Positions 4,142-18,707 of a stretch of 64,000 nucleotides of DNA are shown piece by piece (the stretch's first letter is position 1; each line of letters starts with the position of its first letter). The position numbers and the translations under genes are program-made. The notes below the pieces were generated by a model. The model was not told the origin of the DNA. It ran no database searches and was given only the letters and a program-made list of their open reading frames with translations. The DNA comes from Sphagnum compactum (lineage: Eukaryota): contig OZ234493.1 of the NCBI GenBank assembly GCA_965153455.1, forward strand, positions 3,720,001 to 3,784,000. Direction: 5' to 3'.

Positions 4142-5334
4142 CTCTCAACACCTCGTATCTCTTTAGATCTTCACGAGGCCATAATACTTGCTCAATATAT
4201 TCAAAGCACCTCCGTGAATTCACTACAGAACCTGCAAGTTGTTGAAGCCCACCATTTCTTCTCAGATATCCATCTATCTGTGCATGGTCCAAATGAAGAG
4301 ACAGCTTCCCAACAGGACAACCCCAACACCCTATGCACAAGGGAAAATTGTGAACATGTCCCCCCAAAAGAAAATAAAACCACCAATTGCCAATTGCACA
4401 TATTGTTACCTCCTGCAGGAAGTTCATCATCAAACCAACACGCTCCTGGCAGGAGCAATGAAGTGTCTTGACTCTTTGGAGCACAAACCAAGTGAGCAGC
4501 GAGTCAAGACACTTCATTGCTCCTGCCAGGAGCGTGTGCGAGGGTTGTTGTAACTGTGCTTCCAGTGTGTTCAGATAAAGCTGCAAGAGTTGGTTCACCT
4601 GGTCCTCACTGAATGCAGTCTTGAAACTCTCAACCAAGTACCTAAGCAGCACAATAATGTGCGATCTCACTACAAGATCCCCCCCCCACCACCACATGCA
4701 CACAAAAGGGTTTAAGAAAAAACCACCCACTTTCTTCCAGGTATTGAAATTGGGCTCAGCTCATCATAACAATGGCAAATTATAAAGGAATCATCGGGGT
4801 GTTGTCTTATGTTCTCCACCTTCTTCTTCCAAAATGGAGCACAATCACTTTACACAAAGAGGAAGACATAAAAGAGGAGGAAAATGAGGAGAAGGAGGAG
4901 GAGGAAGAAGAAGAAGAAGAAGATACTGATGAAGTTACTGCAATGAAGAGGCTGAAAAAACAGCAGACGTTACCTTTGATGATGATGAGAAAAACTCACC
5001 ACAAGGAATACAAGAGTAGATCTGATTTTAACGAATTCATTGATTGATTCACCATAGCAAGAGGACTGATGGGAACCTACTTCATGAACATCATGTGTAC
5101 ATAGATCTTGAAAACAGGAAAAAAGGGTGAGAACTGTTTTCAAGCACATGTTCCATGTGATTTTGCTTGCCGAAACTCAACAATCAGCACATTGGTAAGT
5201 CCCCAATCCACCGCGAAGTTGGGAGGCTGCTTCGAGTGCGAAATGCTCCATTCCAGCAGCACAGTAAGGGGCTTTAATGCTGCTGCTTGGACACCTTTGA
5301 CATCATCTCTCCGGAAAATTCTTAGACAATGTTC
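4142..5334 (-). pseudogene. Fragment of DNA-dependent protein kinase catalytic subunit (DNA-PKcs/PRKDC-like) N-terminal HEAT region, several exons, disrupted
   Basis: Collinear exon peptides EHCLRIFRRDDVKGVQAAALKPLTVLLEW, LLQLYLNTLEAQLQQPSHTLLAGAMKCLDSLLTWFDDELPAG and CFEYIEQVLWPREDLKRYEVLR resemble, from memory, vertebrate DNA-PKcs …FLGELKTQM…LAGCLKGLSSLLCNF…[21 protein letters not shown]. Splice sites are present. A 53-bp insertion frameshifts one exon. Confidence 0.65.
4438..4537. repeat. Perfect 37-bp inverted repeat with 26-bp spacer
   Basis: 4438-4474 acacgctcctggcaggagcaatgaagtgtcttgactc is the exact reverse complement of 4501-4537. Confidence 0.95.
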
Positions 5335-5692
5335 CTGGCGAGCAAGAAGGCATATTAGACAGAGACAGACAGCCACCCACCCACCCATCAGCCACACTGT
5401 TAATAAACAAAAGCACCAAGAATTCTTCGTCTTCAGAACCCTACATCCTAAAACACAAAAACAAAAAAGAGCAAAAGAAGAAGAAGAAACGCACTTCATT
5501 CACTCACTCACCCCTCGGCACCATTTGAGCAGAACTACTGATGCTACTCAGCCTCATTCATAGACAAGGTCATTCATGAACCCTAAACTGTATCTGATTT
5601 CACCCTAGCGTGTTCTTTACATCTAGTTTGGAAATATCAGTTCCCCACTTGTTCTCTCCTCTTCATTGTCTCCAGTTGCAGCAGGTGAGGTA

Positions 5693-6743
5693 CCCAATAG
5701 AGTGTGGCTGGACTGCAAATCCACTAATTCACCTGAATCTTTCTTTGAAGCTGTCTTCATTGCCTAATATGCACAACTCTCTTGCATGCTTGGAGCATGT
5801 AATGTCTTCATACAAGAGTTCAAGTGGGTACCTTTGCCAGTAGGTAAGCTGGTTTTTTCTTCATCCAAATCATTGACCCCTTGTGATCCTTCTGTCTTAG
5901 CTAGTTCTTCCAGCTGTTCTGTAGCATTACAGGTTCCATTTCGAGATACTGGATAGTTCTCATAATCCAACTACTCTACCTCGTTATCTGAGGCAACAGA
6001 GAAAGGAAGAATTGGAACATTAAGATGCACATATTCACCCACACCATCAACTGTCACCAGCTCCTTTGCAGGGACCACAAAATTCTCCTGCATAGTTGGA
6101 GCATGACTTGGATTGAAATTCAGGGACACCTCAGCAGATGTGTCTCCAGAGCTCTCATCTTCTTGTTTCTCAGAAGTTTCCACTGGGTAATCCCCTGCAT
6201 TGTCTAGCATCTGCTTGGAAGCAACTGGGTGATTGGTGTCAGCTGCGGAGACCATAGTTTGTTCCTCACAAGGTCTCTGCTCCTTCTAGTTTACCTCAGT
6301 TTTAGATCTGTCATCCCCTGGCATCTCCAGATTCCTCTCAGGGAGGAGCCCCTCAGAGATGTCCAGTGTTCCCACTGACATAACTGTATCACAATTTTCA
6401 GCTTCAAGAGATGTACAAAGTTCATCAAGACAGTTCAGATGTAACCCTTGTCCTTCAATCTCTTCCAACTTTGGCTCTTCTGCAGGAAATGCAGGCTTAT
6501 GCTGTAGAGTTGGAGCAGGTCTAGTTTCAAAAAGAGGGGACATGTGGGCAGCAGCAGCAGCCGATTCACCAGCTATGTCCTCTTCCTGCTTACGGAGATT
6601 GACTTCTCCCATGACAGGTATTGCAACTCTCTCATCTTCTGCCATATCAAATTTTCCATCGGACACATTGTTGGATCTATCTAATTCCTCAGCTGCCTCA
6701 GATGTATCATCATAGATCAGATGACCTCTGAGAGATGCAGGAC
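5693..6743 (-). pseudogene. Captured large exon (about 1.05 kb) of an unknown acidic, low-complexity protein with three in-frame TAG stops
   Basis: CTTGCAG acceptor ends at 6744. ORFs 6666-6286, 6255-5971 and 5970-5764 share one frame, separated only by TAG. Internal repeat motif resembling xxSHAPT(M/L)QE recurs. Donor near 5692. Confidence 0.55.
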
Positions 6744-7441
6744 CTGCAAGACCAACGCATCAACTAGCACAACATGAGGAACCCCTCTTGAAAGCCATTT
6801 CACATGCAAAACCTGTCCTTGGAATGTAGGTGACTGCCACATGTTGAAAATGGAGATAAAGGTATGAGATGCACAGTTGTATAAGACTTTTGTGATGAAT
6901 TGAGGTCAATGGAAGGAAAGATTTTTGTCTGGAATTGATCTCCACTTTGTGACAGAGGGAGCTAATGGATGTGTTTTCAATGTTCTATTTGGTGATTGGT
7001 GGCTGTGGTTGCATTTCAGGGGTCATGCCTCCCTCAGCTCTTGATCACTTGAGTATGTATCTCTGATGTACTTTTCCGGATTTTTGCACGAGGTGTGAGC
7101 ATATTATCATCTATTTAATTGTACCCACTGCCATTCACAGTGAAGAGGATGATGATGATTATGGTACTCACAGGCTGGAAAAGACACAACATTTGTTACG
7201 TTGCACGATTTGGTGGAGATTGTCCATGGAACCACATTCATACATTTCATTGTCAAGACTCCAACAGTTTGAAGATTTTATCTGAAAGCTTGCAATTAGG
7301 ATTTACCTGATTGGATATCTGAGTGCAAGTTAGCATTTCCTGGTTTCATAACAGTGTGATGTTGTCCAATTTCGCCACTTACTGTGAAGGAGTTCTGGTC
7401 AAGATTTCTTGTCATTCCATCATTATTTGAGGGAAGACATA

Positions 7442-10400
7442 ATGTCAATGCCTTTGGATGACCCAAGAAGGCAAAAAGCAAGGGATGACAAGTTGTGGAA
7501 GCGGGAGTTCACATGGGCCACACAACATGGGGTGGACAAGATGCGGTGTCCATGCGCCAAATGTGAAGGAACGGGCAGAATGGTTTTACTTACGACAGTT
7601 AGAAACCACCTAATCCTAAATGGGAGGCATCCACTATTTAGAGTGTGGAAAGGCCCAGGCCCAACTGACCACTCTGATGAAGAGTGGGTTGAAGCAAGCA
7701 GGGCAGCAGTAAACCCAATGGGAACAGAGGTGGAGGTGCAGGTAGTGGATGAGGCTGTGAATGTGAACCAACTTTTGGATGACCTATTCCAAATGCCAGA
7801 GGAAGAACATGAGGTTGAGAGGGTTGCAAACTTGTCCTCAGACCATAATGTAGAGGGAATGGAGCTAACAGGCATGGTGCAGAATGCCATGCAGATCATG
7901 GAAGAGTTAGCAGCATTGCCTGAAAGCATGCCCGACCAGAATAACCATGATAGGGGACAGGGGGGTGTGGACAATCACATGGGACTAGGTGAAACAGGGG
8001 CCCCATCAGTAGCAAGTGATGATGACATCTCAACTGAGGCCAATTATCTACGGGAAGCATGTCAGCCTTTGTACAATGGTGCAAGGTGCACGAAGCTAGC
8101 ATCAACATTACTGTTGATGAATGTTTGCACAGTACATGGCATATCCAACAAGTTCATGGATGAGTTATTAGCACTCCTTCATAAGCACCTACTGCCAAAG
8201 GATAACCTTCTGCCACCTAGCATGTATGCAGCTAAGAGCCTTACTAGGAAAGTAGGCCTAGACTACAAGCACATCCATGCATGTGTGAATGGCTGCATTT
8301 TATTTCGGAAGCAATATTCTACATTGGAGGCTTGTCCAAAGTGCGGGGCTACTCGGTACAAGAAATTTGGCACGTCTTTTGTTCCACAGAAAGTTCTACG
8401 GCACTTCCCCTTAATTCCTCGGTTGCTACGTATGTACCGAGCTCGATAGACATCAGAGATGATGACATGGCATGCTAGAAACAAGAGCACAGATGGGAAA
8501 GTTCGCCATGTGCCTGACAGCAAAGCATGGCAACACATTGATAATACATGGCCTGATTTTGCAATTGAACCTAGAAATGTAAGACTAGGTTTGGCCACCG
8601 ATGGGGTGAACCCTTTTGGGGACAAAAACAATGCTTGGTCCACTTGGCCAGTATTACTCCTAATCTATAACCTCCCACCATGGCTAGTCACAAAGAAGTT
8701 CTTCATGCTCTTATCTATCATAATTCCAGGGCCTGAGAGTGTTAAGAGTGCAAACTTTGATGTCCTAATAAGTCCTCTAATTGAAGAACTCCAAGAATTA
8801 TGGGAGGGGGTTAGAGGGCTTGACATACTACAACCTATAGGTAGAAGGCAATTTTTAATGAGGGCCATATTGATGTGGACGATTCATGATTTTCCAGGGT
8901 ATGGCTTAGTTTCTGGATGCCAACATCAGGGTTACAAAGCATGCCCTCCATGTGGATCAAGGACAACTAGTCGATGGTCAAAGGAGTTGGGAAAGGTAGT
9001 GTTTGAAGGAAATCGGAGGTGGCTGAATCGAAATCACCCATATAGAATTCATCCCATTGCCCAACATTTTAATGGTCATGAGGAGTTAAGGGGAAGGCCA
9101 AATATAATAACAGCTGCTGAGGTGAAAAGACAAGCCCACGCCACTGAAAAGTGGGTGGCTGCAAGAAATGTGTTGGGGGCAAAAGGGTGTCCATCGAGAA
9201 GCAGTGGGATGAAGCGTTTATGTGCATTCTGGGGTCTGCCATATTGGGAGGTGAGCATGAATTATTCAGCCCACCCACCTCAATTGTGTTACATGTTTAG
9301 GCCTGTTGAGTTTTGACCTGTTTGCTGATCCAAGGGTGATCATTGGTTTCACACTTTTTGTTTTCCAATTCACAGCTTTTAGACCCTTTTTCTTTCTTGT
9401 GCTTCCTCCCTCATTTGGCTCATCTATGTCACAACCCCCTCATTTTCAATACAGTGTTACCTTTCAATGCAGTTGCTCGTTGTATATTTAACTACTCTGC
9501 TTAGGGACTCTTCAATCAGTCCACTGCCCTTTAGATTCAGTTTACTTTTGCACTTGGCTATCCAAGAAGTATTTACCTTCTTATTCATCTTCATGTGAAT
9601 ATCTGGAACACAAAGTGACCAATTCAGACACCTGGTTGGCTCATGTAATTTTCTGGGATTCAGTGTACTACATGAATCATTGAGTATTTTGGGAGTGTGG
9701 AGTTATTGATGAGTCACAATCTGTTATTCCTCACTCTTATGAGAACTCCCTTATTAGTGTCATTTTCACTCATCAGTCCAGTCTTCCATGATTCATTTCA
9801 TTCCAACTGTATCATTGTTTGTGACTCAAGAAGGCCTTTTCTTATCAGGATTGATGATGGAAGACCCAAATTAGGGGTTGCCAAAGAAGCCCAAAAATGT
9901 CTCGTGTTCTGGCCAGATTTTTCTCCTCCTTTTTGCTCCAAGGATTCTGCTTTTTTTTCAAGAAATGATGAATTGGTCATGGTAACTTCAAGCAAACAGC
10001 TTGTGCATAGAAGTCCATAGAAGAAAATTGTGCTCCTTGAGGGCCCTGGAGTCCAGGTGAGGTTGAAATGGTGTGGGCCATACTGGTGGCACAGCTGCAG
10101 AGCATCTGCTGGTCTTGTCCATGGGTGACCGGCCCTCTAGATAGTTAACAAAGAAGATGAAGCAATTAAACTTGGGTTCTCAACCTCCTAGGGATGGAGT
10201 CAACCTCTGGGACTTTGTGACTCCATCAGTACACTGATCATCTTAGAACCTTGATGTGCTGTGAAGCATAATAGGTTAGTCCCTATGTTGCTGGAAATTG
10301 GGAAATATGGTTCCTTGTATACACCATTACTGTACCTCTCCAAAATCATTCTGGGATATTGCAGTTTGGTTTTGCTATATCTATGCATATTGCACATGCC

Positions 10401-13400
10401 CTTTGCTACGTGCAAGCAACTGGTGGTCATGATGCACTGCTGCATATGCAAATAGAAGTTATTTTCTCAATTGCTTGACAAACCTCTCTATTCCAGGAGT
10501 TGAGGTGGGTCAGGATGTAGAAAAATTGTGTGTGAATTCAGGCAGGATGCCATCCTGCGTAGTTTACTCAAGTATGACTTTGTCTGAAGATGCAAAGTAA
10601 CGTGCAGAATTGACTACCACTACATTGAATGTGCAACAACATTCATATTGAGTGAGGGACAGCTTGTATTATGGACCCTTATCACTGCCATTATGACCAG
10701 ACTGAAATCCATGGTGACTCTTCTGAGAGCCCTTTGTCTAGACTGACTGTAACACCACTATTCTGTTTGGATTTGTCAGTGTCCAATTGTTCAACACTGG
10801 ATGATACCATGGATTTCTGATCCAGCTGGTTTCAACAACATTAAAAGATGCATCTCATCATGATAGCAAAATGTGTAAAATTTGCATCTTTCTCTTTCAG
10901 TTCACGCTCCATCTGTCTCGCCCTCAATTCACCCTCCAGAATTCTTTTTACTTCATCATTACCTTTCTCACCCTCTTTATGAGATCCTTCTGAAATGTTC
11001 TTACTGGTCTTGGCTGCTGTTGCTGTGACATAAATGTTTGCATCATCTTCGATCATATCCATAGTCTCCCTTGATTGGTTTTTCTCACTGGACACATTTT
11101 TGTTTTGTTGCATGGTCCTCTGAAGCATGTTCGGCAGCCATATTTACATCCACTGGACTATGCTGTGTCATCTGGTCATTATCCAGTTCAGTACTTAAAA
11201 CTCTTTGGTCATGAAGTGTGTTTTGTAGCATTGGGGGATCATCGTGGACTTTTATGTCTTCCAAAGCAGATTCAGTCTTTTGGTTCTCATCCTCTAACTC
11301 CATGTCTAGGAGATCATCAGCCTCATCCTTTAAGTCCACCCAGATCTTGTCTTCAAGTGCGATTACCTGTTCTTCATCATCTTCATCATCAAAGGTTTCA
11401 AAAGACGCTGTATCAAAGGGACTGTTTACTGGGACAACTGAGGCATGAAGTGGTTCATTTCTGGAATCAGAGATAAGTGCAGAGTCTTGGGGTGGGCAAA
11501 CATATTTTTGGTCCCTGTTAAAATTTGTCAATTTGTGAGATTTCAATTATTGGGTGGCATCATTATATGGGTGTTTACATCTTGGTATAGTAGTTCCCAG
11601 GCACAAATTGTGTTAATATTACCATTGTTTAACCGAAATGGTGGTTGCTGCAGCATTTATTCATCAGGCACACGTTAGATGTGATGCACATTGAGAAGAA
11701 TGTTTGTGAGAGTATGATCAAGTTCATATTTGGATTGAAGGACACAATCAAGGTTCGACGGGACATGGAAGTGTGTGGAATCCGAGAACATCTATGGTTG
11801 AAACGGGATCCTCAAAGGCCGGGCAAGATTTTTAAACCTGTTGCCCCCTATGTCCTTAGACCAGAAGAGCTCCAAACTTTCATGAATAGGTTAGCCTCTT
11901 TGAAAGTGCCAACAAATTATTGCGGCTCATTAGGAAAACATATCATGGATAAGAAACTTGGGTTAATGAAGAGCCATGATTGGCATGTTTTAATGCAACA
12001 ATTAATGCCTCTAGCTCTAAGGGGCCTAATGGATGCTCAGGTACGTTTAAGTTTGATGCGCCTTAGTCGAGTGTATCGTAACATATGTGCAAAGGTTTGG
12101 GATCCAATTGACCTACCAACCCTAAGGGAAGATGTAGCAATCACTCTTAGCATGCTTGAATGGGAATTCCCGGGAGCATTTTTTGATGTGATGTCACATT
12201 TAACATTGCACATTGTAGAAGAACTAGACATTTGTGGCCCAGTTCATACTCGCTGGATGTACCCAATAGAACGGGCCATGAAGGTTTTCAAAGGTTATGT
12301 TCGTAATAGGTCAAGGCCAGAGGCTTCCATGGCAGAAGGTTACATTTTGGACGAGACAATTGGGTTTGTCACCGAATATCTACAAGATTTCCGCCATGTT
12401 CGACATAGAATCTGGGATGCAGATGAAGAGGAGGGGGTTTATGGTGAAGTTGTGGAAGGGGCTGCCACAAAGTTGACTCTGGACCCTGTAACACGAGATG
12501 TGGCACATCAATATGTGATGACAAATGTGGCATGTTTAGCACCGTGGGTTCGGTACACAACCCTTAACCCCTTAAACCCCTGTTGGAAAATTGTAAAGAG
12601 GTCATAGATGCATGGGTAAGTTACTTTCTTGTTGAACAACTAACTAAAATTAATAAACTTAATGTGGGGCTTGGCTATTGGGGATGCAACATGTATGAGC
12701 AGAAAACAATTCGGATAAGGCAGTTAAGAGCAGAATTTGAAGCACAATGGCAGATGGGGCATAGAAAAAGAAGCAGGCATGTGGAGTTTCCACCAGAGCT
12801 CCAAGAGGTGCAAAACTTGGCAAGTTGGGTTCGTGAAGCAATTCGGACCCATATCGCACAAGGGGGCGTGCTTGAAGACCAAGATGCACTCCATCTATCA
12901 GTTTCGCCATCCCCTTTTGCTTCAAGGTACACAAGAATGAAGGCATATGGAAATCATTACAGAGTTTCTATAAATACCACTGACAACACAAGTGCCACAT
13001 ACGATTCTGGAGTTGCATCAGTTTTCCATCAAGAGCAGCAGTCAACAAAAGGTACGAGACTTGGGGCGCTTCAATATGTGGGGATATTGAAGGACATAAT
13101 TTTGCTAGACTATGGCCCTATATCCCAACCAGTAATATTGTTCAAATGTGATTGGGTAAGAAATGGATTAGACAGATGGGGGAATCCCACATATAAGCGT
13201 GATGATGATGGGTTTTTGTTGGTAAATTTTCGACAATTGAAAGCACGGGTTGATGAACCTTATGTATTTCCAGCCCAGGTTCAGCAGGTTTTTTATGCAG
13301 ATGACCCTAACATGCCAGGATGGAAGGTTGTCCTCCACAAAGAACCAAGGTCCAAACGCATCCTAGTATCTGATAGTGATGAAATTACCATGGTAGACAA

Positions 13401-13551
13401 CTTAATTGGAGTAGATGTGCCTCTGGAATTTCCAGAGGTACCAAGGAACATGGCACTTGTTGGTGCAATTGAATTGACTGGAGGTGATGCAATTCTAGCT
13501 GCCGAAGAGCTTCAAAGGTCATCTGGTGAGGATGAAGTTGGCCTTGAATGA
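7442..13551 (+). mobile_element. CACTA/En-Spm DDE transposase (TnpD-like), 3 exons, about 1189 codons, one nonsense codon
   Basis: Exons 7442-9250, 11654-12552 and 12690-13551. Motifs: transposase-associated CPCxKC…HL…G; IHACVNGCILF…CPKCG; KVLRHFPLIPRL; RNVRLGLATDGVNPF; WPVLLLIYNLPPW; WTIHDFPGYG…CPPC; LPYWE|HLFIRHTLDVMHIEKNVCE; MKSHDWH; HLTLH; WMYPIER; ILFKCDW…EPYVFPAQVQQVFY. TAG at 8447-8449 is in frame with both flanking ORFs. Confidence 0.95.
9292..11605 (-). pseudogene. Decayed coding-like host sequence (unknown acidic/coiled-coil protein) inserted antisense into transposase intron 1
   Basis: Minus-strand ORF pieces 11546-11085, 11128-10841 and 9995-9798 with protein-like composition, stops and frameshifts. 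The block is bounded by direct repeats aattgtgtta at 9282-9291 and 11606-11615. Confidence 0.6.
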
Positions 13552-13943
13552 ATAGTTGTCTTATGGGGATCTTGCAGTTCTTGCCACACGTATTTCAAGA
13601 GCTACAGGCACACAGGTAAGTGTCCTTGAGCTGACTTTGTAGGCACTCACTACAGGATCTGCTCCCATGTTTAGAGCTGAAACATATTTATGAGTCGTTC
13701 TGATGGTATGGGCTTCCTGGAGATATTGCAGATCCTTTGAAGATCCTCTTTATGTGCTAACCGCCTTTGGATTCTGAATGTAGACAGGTTGCACCCAGTG
13801 GTAAAAAATTTAATATCTTACTACAGTGTTATTTGCTTAACACAAATCTCTCTTTGGCAAGAGAAAGAATAATTAAGGCCCTGATTAAGGTCCTAATTAG
13901 GCTACTAATCACAAATGATTAGCGAATGGGGTTGATTAGTATT

Positions 13944-14030: not shown

Positions 14031-15459
14031 AAGGTCATCTGAGCTTGAGGGTTTTCTTGAAGCTGGGGCTTATGGGATTTCAGAGACATTGGTTGAAGAG
14101 CCAGTGGAGGATAACAAGATGTGCTTGTGCCACTATGTGACTGCTATGATGTGGTTATGTTGTTGCTAACTGGTATTTTTTTCAATGTCTAGGTACCTGT
14201 TGCAGTTGGGGGAAGTGGTGATGTTCATCATGACTGCCTGAAGTGCTTGATAAGCAATAAGGATAATTCCATTACAGAGGTTCATGAATGACAAGTGCTG
14301 AACAAGCAGGGTTTTGTGCACAATGTAAGAGGGACTTATGTTTGCTTGATATTTGGTGCTGATTGGTGGGTGCTGATCAGATACAGCAAGAGTGCTGTAG
14401 CCATAAAAGAAATCTTTCCAAAGATGCAAGACTTGCAATCTATGAAGTAATGAGGTAGGATAACTCTGTGGCACCATTTGTGGTGCCTAGGGTGGTGGGA
14501 AGACAACAGCAGCATGGCTGCGACACATAGGCTGGAGGCAACAACGTTGAGCAGTATTGATGGAATTTCTTTTACAACATTGTTAGGACACTTCAGAGCT
14601 GAAACTCAATAGAAACAGGGCTGTGATGAACTTTATGGATTTAGAGATCTATTCTGGCACAAGCTGCATTCATATACTTGGTTGCCTTCCAAGCATATAC
14701 ACAGTTGGAAGAGGACTAATGTTATACTGAATGAGCATTTGGATCATTCCGTTTGCAAATGCAAGTAGCTCACAGAATACCATCAATTGAGCAAGCATGA
14801 TTTTAGGAGGGCTGGAGCATGTATAGACCTCTTACCGTGAGGATTTAAGCATTGATGAACAAAGGTTCATTTCAGAATAGAGAGATCTTGTTTATTGAAA
14901 TCATCTGATAACTGTTTGATCAGTTCTAATTTCAACACGTGCATTATATATGATATTATCCTCGAGTGCTCAACTGAATTGAGATCTGCCTTAGTGTAAT
15001 GAGTTGGGTCAGAATTCCCAGTTGCTACAATGAAATTTGACACTGTTTAGCTGATGATGTTTGCCTCACTTAGAACATCTTGATTGTTCGAAATTTTATG
15101 TTTTCATAATGACGACACATAATCTCTTCAGTTGGAAATGAGGAGCTTGTGGATTAGTAGTCATGAGCAGCAGATATTGCTCGCTTTGTTGTCCCTCACA
15201 TTCGGTCCCTATGACAGACAGTACCAGAAAAAAACAGGTGTACTTGTAAGGTATTATACCAGGACTAAAGAGAGCTTGGTCTTGATCTTCCTTGTTTGCA
15301 GGGGAGTCCAAATTACACTCTTCCTCTCTATTTCGCGTCTATGGCTCCACCGAACTTTGTTGTTACTCTTGTGTTGTGCCCACAAAATTCTGATAGAGAA
15401 GAATTTTTTCTTACTGAATAATATCAGGCAGATTTGCAGAAGCGGAGGTCATCATCATA

Positions 15460-16213
15460 ATGGGGGAAGCCACATACACTCCCAAAAACATCTTGATAAC
15501 TGGTGCAGCAGGATTCATTGCATCTCATGTTGCCAACAGACTGATGCGCAACTACCCACATTACGAGATCGTGGTGCTAGACAAGTTGGATTATTGCTCC
15601 AACTTGAAGAATCTGTTGCCCTACAAGTCCTCCAAGAATTTCAAGTTTGTGAAAGGTGACATTGGGAGTGCAGATCTTGTGAACTACCTTCTCATTACTG
15701 AGGGTATTGACACCATTATGCACTTTGCCGTCCAAACTCATGTCGACAACTCATTTGGCAACAGTATTGAGTTCACAAATAACAACAACTATGGGACCCA
15801 TGTGTTGCTGGAGGCATGCAAAGTGACAGGCACTGTCCACCGCTTCATTCATGTGAGCCCATATGAGGTCTATGGAGAGACTGAGGCTGATGCAATTGTT
15901 GGAAACCATGAAGCATCACAGCTGCTTCCCACAAATCCCTACTTAGCCACCAAGGCTGGTGTAGAAATGCCGGTGATGGCATATGGCCGCTCATATGGGT
16001 TGCCTGTCATCACCAGACGAGGCAATAATGTGTATGGACCAAACCAATTCCCATAGAAGCTCATTCCCACATTCATTCTTTTGGCCAGGGGAAGCCCCTC
16101 CCCATCCATGGAGATGGATGTAATGTGCGAAACTACCTGTACTGTGAAGATGTGGCTGAAGCGTTTGAGGTTGTGCTGCACAAGGGAAGTGTTGGTCATG
16201 TTTACAATTTTGG
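15460..16213 (+). pseudogene. RHM: UDP-L-rhamnose synthase (RHM-like) UDP-glucose 4,6-dehydratase domain only, truncated pseudogene
   Basis: MGEATYTPKNILITGAAGFIASHVANRL…DKLDYCSNLKNL…HFAVQTHVDNSFGNS…GNNVYGPNQFP*KLIP…GKPLPIHGDG…YLYCEDVAEAFEVVLHKG…HVYNFG. TAG at 16054-16056, a frameshift near 16090 and the conserved HVSTDEVYG changed to HVSPYEVYG. The C-terminal epimerase/reductase half is missing. Confidence 0.9.

Positions 16214-16458: not shown

Positions 16459-18707
<2,249 letters not shown>

Follow-up and report, generated by a model that had tools for sequence, protein, structure and literature searches.

The transposase gene and its first intron

A stretch of 64,000 nucleotides (nt) from Sphagnum compactum (GenBank assembly GCA_965153455.1, contig OZ234493.1, positions 3,720,001 to 3,784,000 of the forward strand), hereafter the window and numbered from its first letter, carries a TNP2-type (CACTA) transposase gene in pieces at 7388-13551 on the plus strand, as identified by Pfam domains and open reading frames (ORFs). 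The subject of this report is the first intron of that gene (9251-11653), in which antisense parts of a host gene replace a short piece of the native intron. Exon 1 (7388-9250) begins with a Transpos_assoc-like part (PF13963 at 7388-8449; E 1.2e-5, under the Pfam cut-off) and continues with Transposase_21/TNP2 (PF02992 at 8450-9250; E 4.9e-69), an in-frame TAG at 8447-8449 lying between the two. Exon 2 (11654-12552) carries DUF4218 (PF13960 in the ORF at 11654-12607; E 4.6e-33), and exon 3 (12690-13551) carries DUF4216 (PF13952 in the ORF at 12568-13551; E 8.8e-13). Together these form the TNP2 domain set by which membership in the CACTA (En/Spm) family is recognized.

The intron starts with the donor GTGAGC at 9251 and ends with the acceptor TGCAG at 11653. 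Its removal joins the end of exon 1, GLPYWE, to the start of exon 2, HLFIRHTLDVMHIEKN, so that the product reads LPYWE/HLFIRH. A search with exon 1 against 1.84 billion representative proteins gave 5532 matches at E <= 0.001. We compared 24 listed proteins with both exons; they were chosen because their match reached the end of exon 1, and most of them are longer than the match. Both exons were matched by 18 of the 24, and all 18 had LPYW-x followed directly by x-L-x-x-RH-x-LDVMHIEKN. The two matches abutted without a net gap in 14 of these proteins, exactly so in three (P0144, P0147 and P0177), and the other six of the 24 stopped short of exon 2. Contigs of two DNA runs and two RNA-library runs were also aligned to 7300-13700. 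A joint from 9250 to 11654 with GT..AG borders was found in one contig of RNA run X17, with a shorter side of 28 letters, and was absent from the other RNA run and from both DNA runs. The predicted join is well supported by homology and weakly by RNA. The first-pass annotation of this stretch, made from the sequence alone, had proposed the same splice sites and the same exon join, and these are borne out.

Exon 2 is supported by Pfam and by the contiguity of the homologues, and its end is marked by a second RNA joint: in run X17, one contig (shorter side of 29 letters) joins 12552 to 12690. The intron so defined (12553-12689, 137 nt) reads GT..AA in the window, and its acceptor may be mutated.

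Composition of the insert

To place the insert, we fetched DNA around relatives of a 153-aa antisense ORF in it from metagenome contigs, which gave 15 loci (L001 to L015), all compared with the window. Two of them, L005 and L006, are not transposons and represent the gene from which the insert derives. Read from its 5' end, the intron starts with a native part on the plus strand (9251-9303), which includes the splice donor and the first copy of a 10-mer, AATTGTGTTA, at 9282-9291. This part is common to a shorter, empty form of the intron, whose ORFs read through to EVSMNYSAHPPQLCYMFRP before departing from the window. The next base, 9304, fits neither the donor gene nor the empty form when the junctions are compared. 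It is followed on the minus strand by 13 nt of an intron of the donor gene (9305-9317; GTCAAAACTCAAC on that strand), present in L005 and spliced out in L006, and by an antisense piece of the donor-gene exon, piece 2, at 9318-9413 (blastn, L005 10720-10828 against window 9413-9305, 95%). A stretch of 1467 bp, called Y here (9414-10880), then stands in place of 111 bp of the donor exon. Beyond it lies another antisense piece of the same exon, piece 1, at 10881-11497 (blastn, L005 9993-10608, 93%), of which the GC at 11496-11497 is also present in the empty form. The native 3' part on the plus strand (11498-11653) contains the second 10-mer, at 11606-11615, and the splice acceptor, and the empty form shares at least 11495-11545 with the window.

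Judged by these alignments, the insert is two antisense pieces of one host exon separated by 1467 bp of other DNA. It had been annotated at first as a single antisense host fragment; the host origin and the orientation hold, but the insert is not a single fragment. The window differs from L005 by 40 substitutions in 616 nt plus one gap in piece 1 and by 5 in 109 nt in piece 2. The minus strand is coding-like, as had been noticed, with ORFs of 153 aa (11085-11546) and 100 aa (10841-11143), into which a 1-nt insertion at 11107 splits the frame of piece 1. Relatives of the 153-aa ORF form 23 clusters, at 80-92% identity, and Pfam gave nothing on eight antisense or Y ORFs. The insert is without terminal inverted or long direct repeats at its bounds and no A/T run is visible at its ends, in agreement with the first-pass annotation, and no further copy of it was found inside the window by blastn or tblastx.

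Y has only short ORFs and no Pfam hit, and it matches nothing elsewhere in the window or in other parts of the 15 loci. It is colinear with the window in L001, L003, L004 and L008. RNA cover over Y was thin or absent in some bins of runs X15 and X17, which we did not use as evidence either way. For a short part of Y (10083-10128), G+C-rich contigs from DNA run X6 and RNA run X15 gave matches. Beyond the match the contigs diverge from the window, on the left side in X6 and on both sides in X15, and the stretch could be another captured gene scrap or come from another organism.

The donor gene

L005 is a genomic locus on a 95-kb contig, with a 401-codon open exon in which the counterpart of window 11497 to 10881, the 111 bp and the counterpart of 9413 to 9305 follow one another without interruption. 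L006 has the spliced, mRNA-like form of the gene, open over 628 codons. Both match the window over the two stretches at 93-96%, and the 111 bp are continuous coding sequence between them in both. A possible splice acceptor of the antisense gene at 11490 was dropped, since the L005 exon is uninterrupted there. Annotated versions of the gene occur in four Sphagnum species, with 94-97% identity, and related genes are present in Physcomitrium and Ceratodon; the alignment of the Physcomitrium protein covers residues 83-621, the captured part included. Because the gene is conserved in other mosses, with the captured part covered in Physcomitrium, the direction of transfer was from the gene to the transposon. 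UniRef names the protein "RRM domain-containing", with a Pfam RRM_1 match at E 0.044, under the cut-off, and an Atlas search with the donor protein gave only 0.83-level leads to streptophyte RRM proteins. We refer to it below as the RRM gene.

The captured stretch begins within the exon, near codon 330 in the 628-codon frame of L006, and extends 13 nt beyond the exon end. Since those 13 nt belong to the donor intron, genomic DNA served as the template, and not an mRNA. Outside Y, the insert has an identifiable ectopic genomic template, with 93-95% identity to the RRM-gene exon plus 13 nt of intron, as is expected of filler DNA. A search for the donor locus, with a look at whether the 10-mer is present at its ends, had been advised earlier. 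The donor was found, but its homology to the window ends inside the 10-mers, 13 nt from the first (at 9305) and 108 nt from the second (at 11497).

The empty intron and the junctions

The empty form of the intron was seen in two kinds of data. One contig of RNA-library run X15 joins 9303 to 11495 with 20 other letters between them (shorter side of 50 letters), and a contig of DNA run X2 ends with a 28-letter loose end after 9303, consisting of the same 20 letters and then window 11495-11502. The letters of this junction had no match in the viral_contigs collection, in which moss DNA would hardly be expected. The tails of predicted ORFs were a further source: in a cluster of 172 members, of which 40 were read, we took the 15 listed members, prokaryote-style gene calls that run from exon 1 into the intron. 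Four of these (P0058, P0077, P0081 and P0088) read PPQ, then L, M or P-L, then CYMFRP, and go on with TIQQGI; P0058 and P0088 continue to FVNL and a stop, which corresponds to window 11495-11540. Among the rest, P0087 represents the filled type (MFRPVEL), another diverges immediately behind the splice donor and nine end short of the junction. If the remainder is colinear, the empty intron would be 53 + 20 + 159, or about 232 nt. A short-intron version had been predicted by the first-pass annotation with a length of 79 nt. Such a version exists, but it is about 232 nt long, and no ORF tail of a 79-nt intron occurs among the 15 listed members.

The homology to the donor gene and the homology to the empty form stop at the same two places, 9303/9304 and 11494-11497. 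The filled form is without the 20 letters, and its flanks are not duplicated; loss of target bases and absence of a target duplication are what filler DNA would leave. At the 3' junction, 2 nt of microhomology (the GC at 11496-11497) are common to donor, empty and filled sequences, and at 9304 there is none, only the one odd base. The first 10-mer is retained in the empty form, where it encodes PPQLCY; the second was not seen there, as the empty-copy sequences did not cover that native part.

Filled copies and their decay

Eleven of the 15 loci lie in the same transposase context as the window. L003 is of the window type, as it follows the window colinearly through both ends of the intron; L001, L002, L004 and L007 are likewise colinear over the length that they cover. 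Six loci (L008, L009, L011, L012, L013 and L015) have a double form, in which 9336 is followed by a second copy of 11342 to 10881, the intact 111 bp and then 9413 onward. The junction of this double form has a TGG-type overlap and is common to eight loci, the six just named and L010 and L014, which are further rearranged pieces. Because the window type is without the 111 bp, it cannot be the ancestor of the double form. Most simply, the window type would be a deletion derivative of the double form, produced by recombination between its two 78-bp repeats. A tree of a 458-bp exon piece was star-like with weak supports, and the order of the forms could not be read from it.

Seven distinct sequences, the window included, differ pairwise by 2.0-5.3% over Y 10290-10880, and the exon piece varies by 3-6% among the six double-form copies. 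There are at least eight distinct filled copies, six of the double form and two of the window type, with differences of 2-7% overall. In L002 (at about 2329) and L013 (at about 4159), at the equivalent of window 10282-10286, there is a nested insertion that begins with TG, ends with CA and is flanked by ATAGG on either side. By these features it looks like an LTR retrotransposon, and it may have split a single copy, of which L002 and L013 would then be the two halves.

The splice donor was retained in all 7 filled copies compared, and the acceptor in all 3. The exons have decayed. The TAG at 8447-8449 of the window, in place of which the four runs all have C at 8447 and P0077 has an H, is one of the exon 1 stops found in the window (one), L008 (five), L013 (one) and L012 (one); exon 2 has stops in L002 and L007, and in L002 it is also split over three frames. 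The empty copy P0077 has a 639-codon open frame through exon 1.

Surroundings of the element

No matching pair of CACTA termini was found around the gene and no terminal motif in the fetched loci. The homology of the window to L008 and L014 stops at 5510, beyond which these two loci agree with each other, and by this comparison the window copy is truncated or interrupted on its 5' side at that point. Two acidic minus-strand ORFs (104 and 157 aa) at 5971-6759 belong to the 5' part of the element family and are shared with L008 and L013. They have no Pfam hit, an Atlas search with the ORF at 6289-6759 gave no usable match, and they may represent another captured fragment. A perfect 37-nt inverted repeat with a 26-nt loop lies at 4438-4537, immediately upstream of the element region. 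Further downstream, the ORFs at 15418-16056 (with the motif GAAGFIASH) and 17194-17469 are, judged by eye, candidates for an NAD-dependent sugar dehydratase/epimerase and a ubiquitin-conjugating enzyme, respectively.

Proposed mechanism of the capture

We consider it about 80% probable that the window holds a decayed Sphagnum CACTA (TNP2-type) copy in which a break in the transposase intron was repaired with antisense filler from the RRM gene, without target duplication, and that the cargo-bearing element later multiplied. In this scheme, the intron, about 232 nt long in the related empty copies, would have been broken, and its repair would have cost 20 nt. The repair may have copied part of the large exon of the RRM gene in antisense, together with the 13 nt of intron, from genomic DNA. 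The resulting filler would be a mosaic, with the 1467 bp of Y in place of 111 bp and, in the double form, with a second partial copy of the exon. The double form would then have given rise to the window form by recombination between the 78-bp repeats. The coding sequence would have been untouched at the time of capture, as the cargo lay in an intron with both splice sites kept, and the element then multiplied. The donor gene, the borders, the empty form, the existence of several copies and their decay are observations; the template-switching repair, the order from double form to window form and the spread by transposition are inferred.

The pattern is that of filler-DNA break repair, because target bases were lost, nothing was duplicated, the template was ectopic, the microhomology is minimal and the template was copied twice. 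Synthesis-dependent repair with template switches is the most likely route. The first-pass annotation had offered a target duplication and a templated break repair as two possible origins, and with 20 nt lost and no target duplication the second is the better one. Filler DNA at plant double-strand breaks is reportedly the subject of work by Gorbunova and Levy, by Salomon and Puchta, and by Wicker et al. in 2010. The likeness to such filler lies in the few target bases lost, the lack of a duplication, the ectopic sequence and its sometimes mosaic character, and perhaps in the very short microhomology. What differs is that the filler here is long (2.2 kb, and about 2.8 kb in the double form) and that the repaired molecule was a transposon, which later multiplied.

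Several points weigh against this scheme. No source was found for Y. What was seen of the empty form is limited to one 50-letter joint, one 28-letter contig end and the tails of ORFs. The spliced RNA contig, which had been called for as a check of the exon join, exists, but with a short side of 28 letters it would look alike from an empty copy and cannot tell a long-intron from a short-intron origin. Stop codons occur in every filled copy with full exon cover. Element ends, CACTA repeats and target duplications were not found, which leaves a spread by transposition presumptive; transposase made by empty copies may have mobilized the filled ones. The donor and the other copies were taken from metagenome contigs, run contigs and public sets of proteins, possibly of several Sphagnum species, and some of the filled copies could be orthologues instead of paralogues. 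Finally, the microhomology, 2 nt at one junction and none at the other, would also allow a simple end-joining of a free fragment.

Alternative explanations

That last possibility is the strongest competitor, and we regard it as a minority view with some weight: a free piece of the donor gene would have been ligated into the break by plain end-joining, Y would have come from a second, separate break repair, and no template would have been switched. Besides the microhomology, the one untemplated base at 9304 agrees with it, and the exchange of 111 bp for Y follows the delete-and-fill pattern of the first event, in which the 20 nt were lost. The double form, in which the exon was copied twice with a microhomology junction, is easier to obtain by repeated copying of a template. 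A simple one-piece insert, which would speak for two separate events, is not among the 15 loci; the lack of such a product (the exon with its 111 bp and without Y) counts also against break repair with template switching, which we continue to prefer.

It is very improbable that the long, filled intron is ancestral and that the 232-nt form arose by a later deletion. The filled copies are numerous (at least eight), and the 20 letters could in principle be filler left by the deletion. Such a deletion would need to excise exactly the donor-derived block at both ends, and because the gene of the fragment is conserved in other mosses, an empty state must have existed. Moreover, the empty copy P0077 keeps its exon 1 open over 639 aa, whereas the filled copies have decayed.

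An equally slight chance is left to the view that the insert, or Y, is an independent multicopy transposon such as a MULE or a Helitron without obvious ends, a case that the first-pass annotation had set against its own proposal. The 23 clusters of relatives of the antisense ORF, the missing source of Y, and some X6 and X15 contigs, in which parts of Y continue into different sequence (with loose ends at 9547, 10083 and 10128), could be explained in this way. Against it, 11 of the 15 loci lie in one and the same transposase context; L010 and L014 are rearranged pieces with the double-form junction, and L005 and L006 are the donor gene itself. Neither terminal repeats nor a target duplication accompany the insert, and 20 nt of target were lost, as were 111 nt of exon at the place of Y.

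The least credible explanation is the original one, in which 2324 bp had been inserted between the two copies of the 10-mer, taken as a target duplication or as repair microhomology, in an intron of 79 nt. The positions of the 10-mers and the arithmetic behind that length (2403 - 2324 = 79) are correct in the sequence; the 10-mer is perfect, lies near both intron ends, has no other site in the window on either strand and is largely intact in the filled copies (7 of 7 for the first, 3 of 4 for the second). The pair is one of four perfect 10-nt direct-repeat pairs within 9200-11700, and at least two occurrences of the 10-mer were found in 13 of 100 shuffles of the window, which is not beyond chance expectation. 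Since the donor homology and the empty form both end at 9303/9304 and 11494-11497, and the empty form that departs there still encodes the first 10-mer, a role of the 10-mers as insertion borders, target duplication or junction microhomology is refuted by these comparisons.

Relation to known gene capture

The capture of gene fragments by CACTA elements is an established phenomenon; what differs here is the site in an intron, the bryophyte host and the completeness of the record. Tgm-Express1 of soybean is a CACTA element with five gene fragments (PMC1947982), and Pack-CACTA elements are mobile in Arabidopsis (PMC6379663). Like the element in the window, they are CACTA elements with genomic pieces of exon and intron from unrelated host genes, and their cargo copies are more than one. 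They differ in being non-autonomous and without a transposase gene, with the host fragments between their ends, whereas here the cargo lies antisense in an intron of the element's own transposase gene. The capture model of the Arabidopsis study, which involves two neighbouring elements and an aberrant excision (PMC6379663), does not fit the internal delete-and-fill junction found here. Pack-TYPE elements are described as non-autonomous, without a transposase gene and with an interior of host DNA (PMC6379663, PMC8903248). The element in the window carries a host gene fragment, but transposase exons flank the cargo, and for this reason we do not file it as a Pack-CACTA.

Another case is that of the coding CACTA elements of Chenopodium, which have Transposase_21 and carry short fragments of host genes (PMC8978399). 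All of those fragments are reported to lie upstream of ORF 1, in the 5' region and not in the coding sequence, whereas the cargo described here is in the intron between the Transposase_21 and DUF4218 exons, and both its donor and its empty site were identified. The Chenopodium study cites Rubin and Levy for filler DNA, or abortive gap repair at double-strand breaks, as the mechanism of capture (PMC8978399). In Sphagnum, CACTA elements form the largest classified repeat class of the genome, at 6.8% (PMC9946827). Among the papers listed on CACTA capture, Sphagnum CACTA elements and filler DNA, we found no report of a capture inside a CACTA transposase intron, which is no proof of absence.

The first-pass annotation had also suggested that the intron is a safe cargo bay, in which the element gains DNA without breaking its transposase. 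The splice sites kept in the filled copies and the later multiplication fit this idea, which is no more than compatible with the data, since every filled copy with full exon cover carries stops. The host gene and parts of the intron are both present in the RNA libraries. That the intron is a tolerated cargo site from which a putative antisense RRM exon in the pre-mRNA leads to double-stranded RNA, to small-RNA cross-talk with the host gene or to a "camouflage" of the element is a speculation to which we give little credence.

The record of this capture is unusually complete, since it includes the donor gene, both the empty and the filled site, and derived forms. It also illustrates that the borders of an insert need not coincide with a short perfect repeat found close to its two ends. 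For CACTA elements, the locus would be an example of capture by a delete-and-fill repair in an intron and not by a transposon-style insertion. It would also provide an example from a bryophyte in which the cargo came to lie within the transposase gene while the exons were left untouched.

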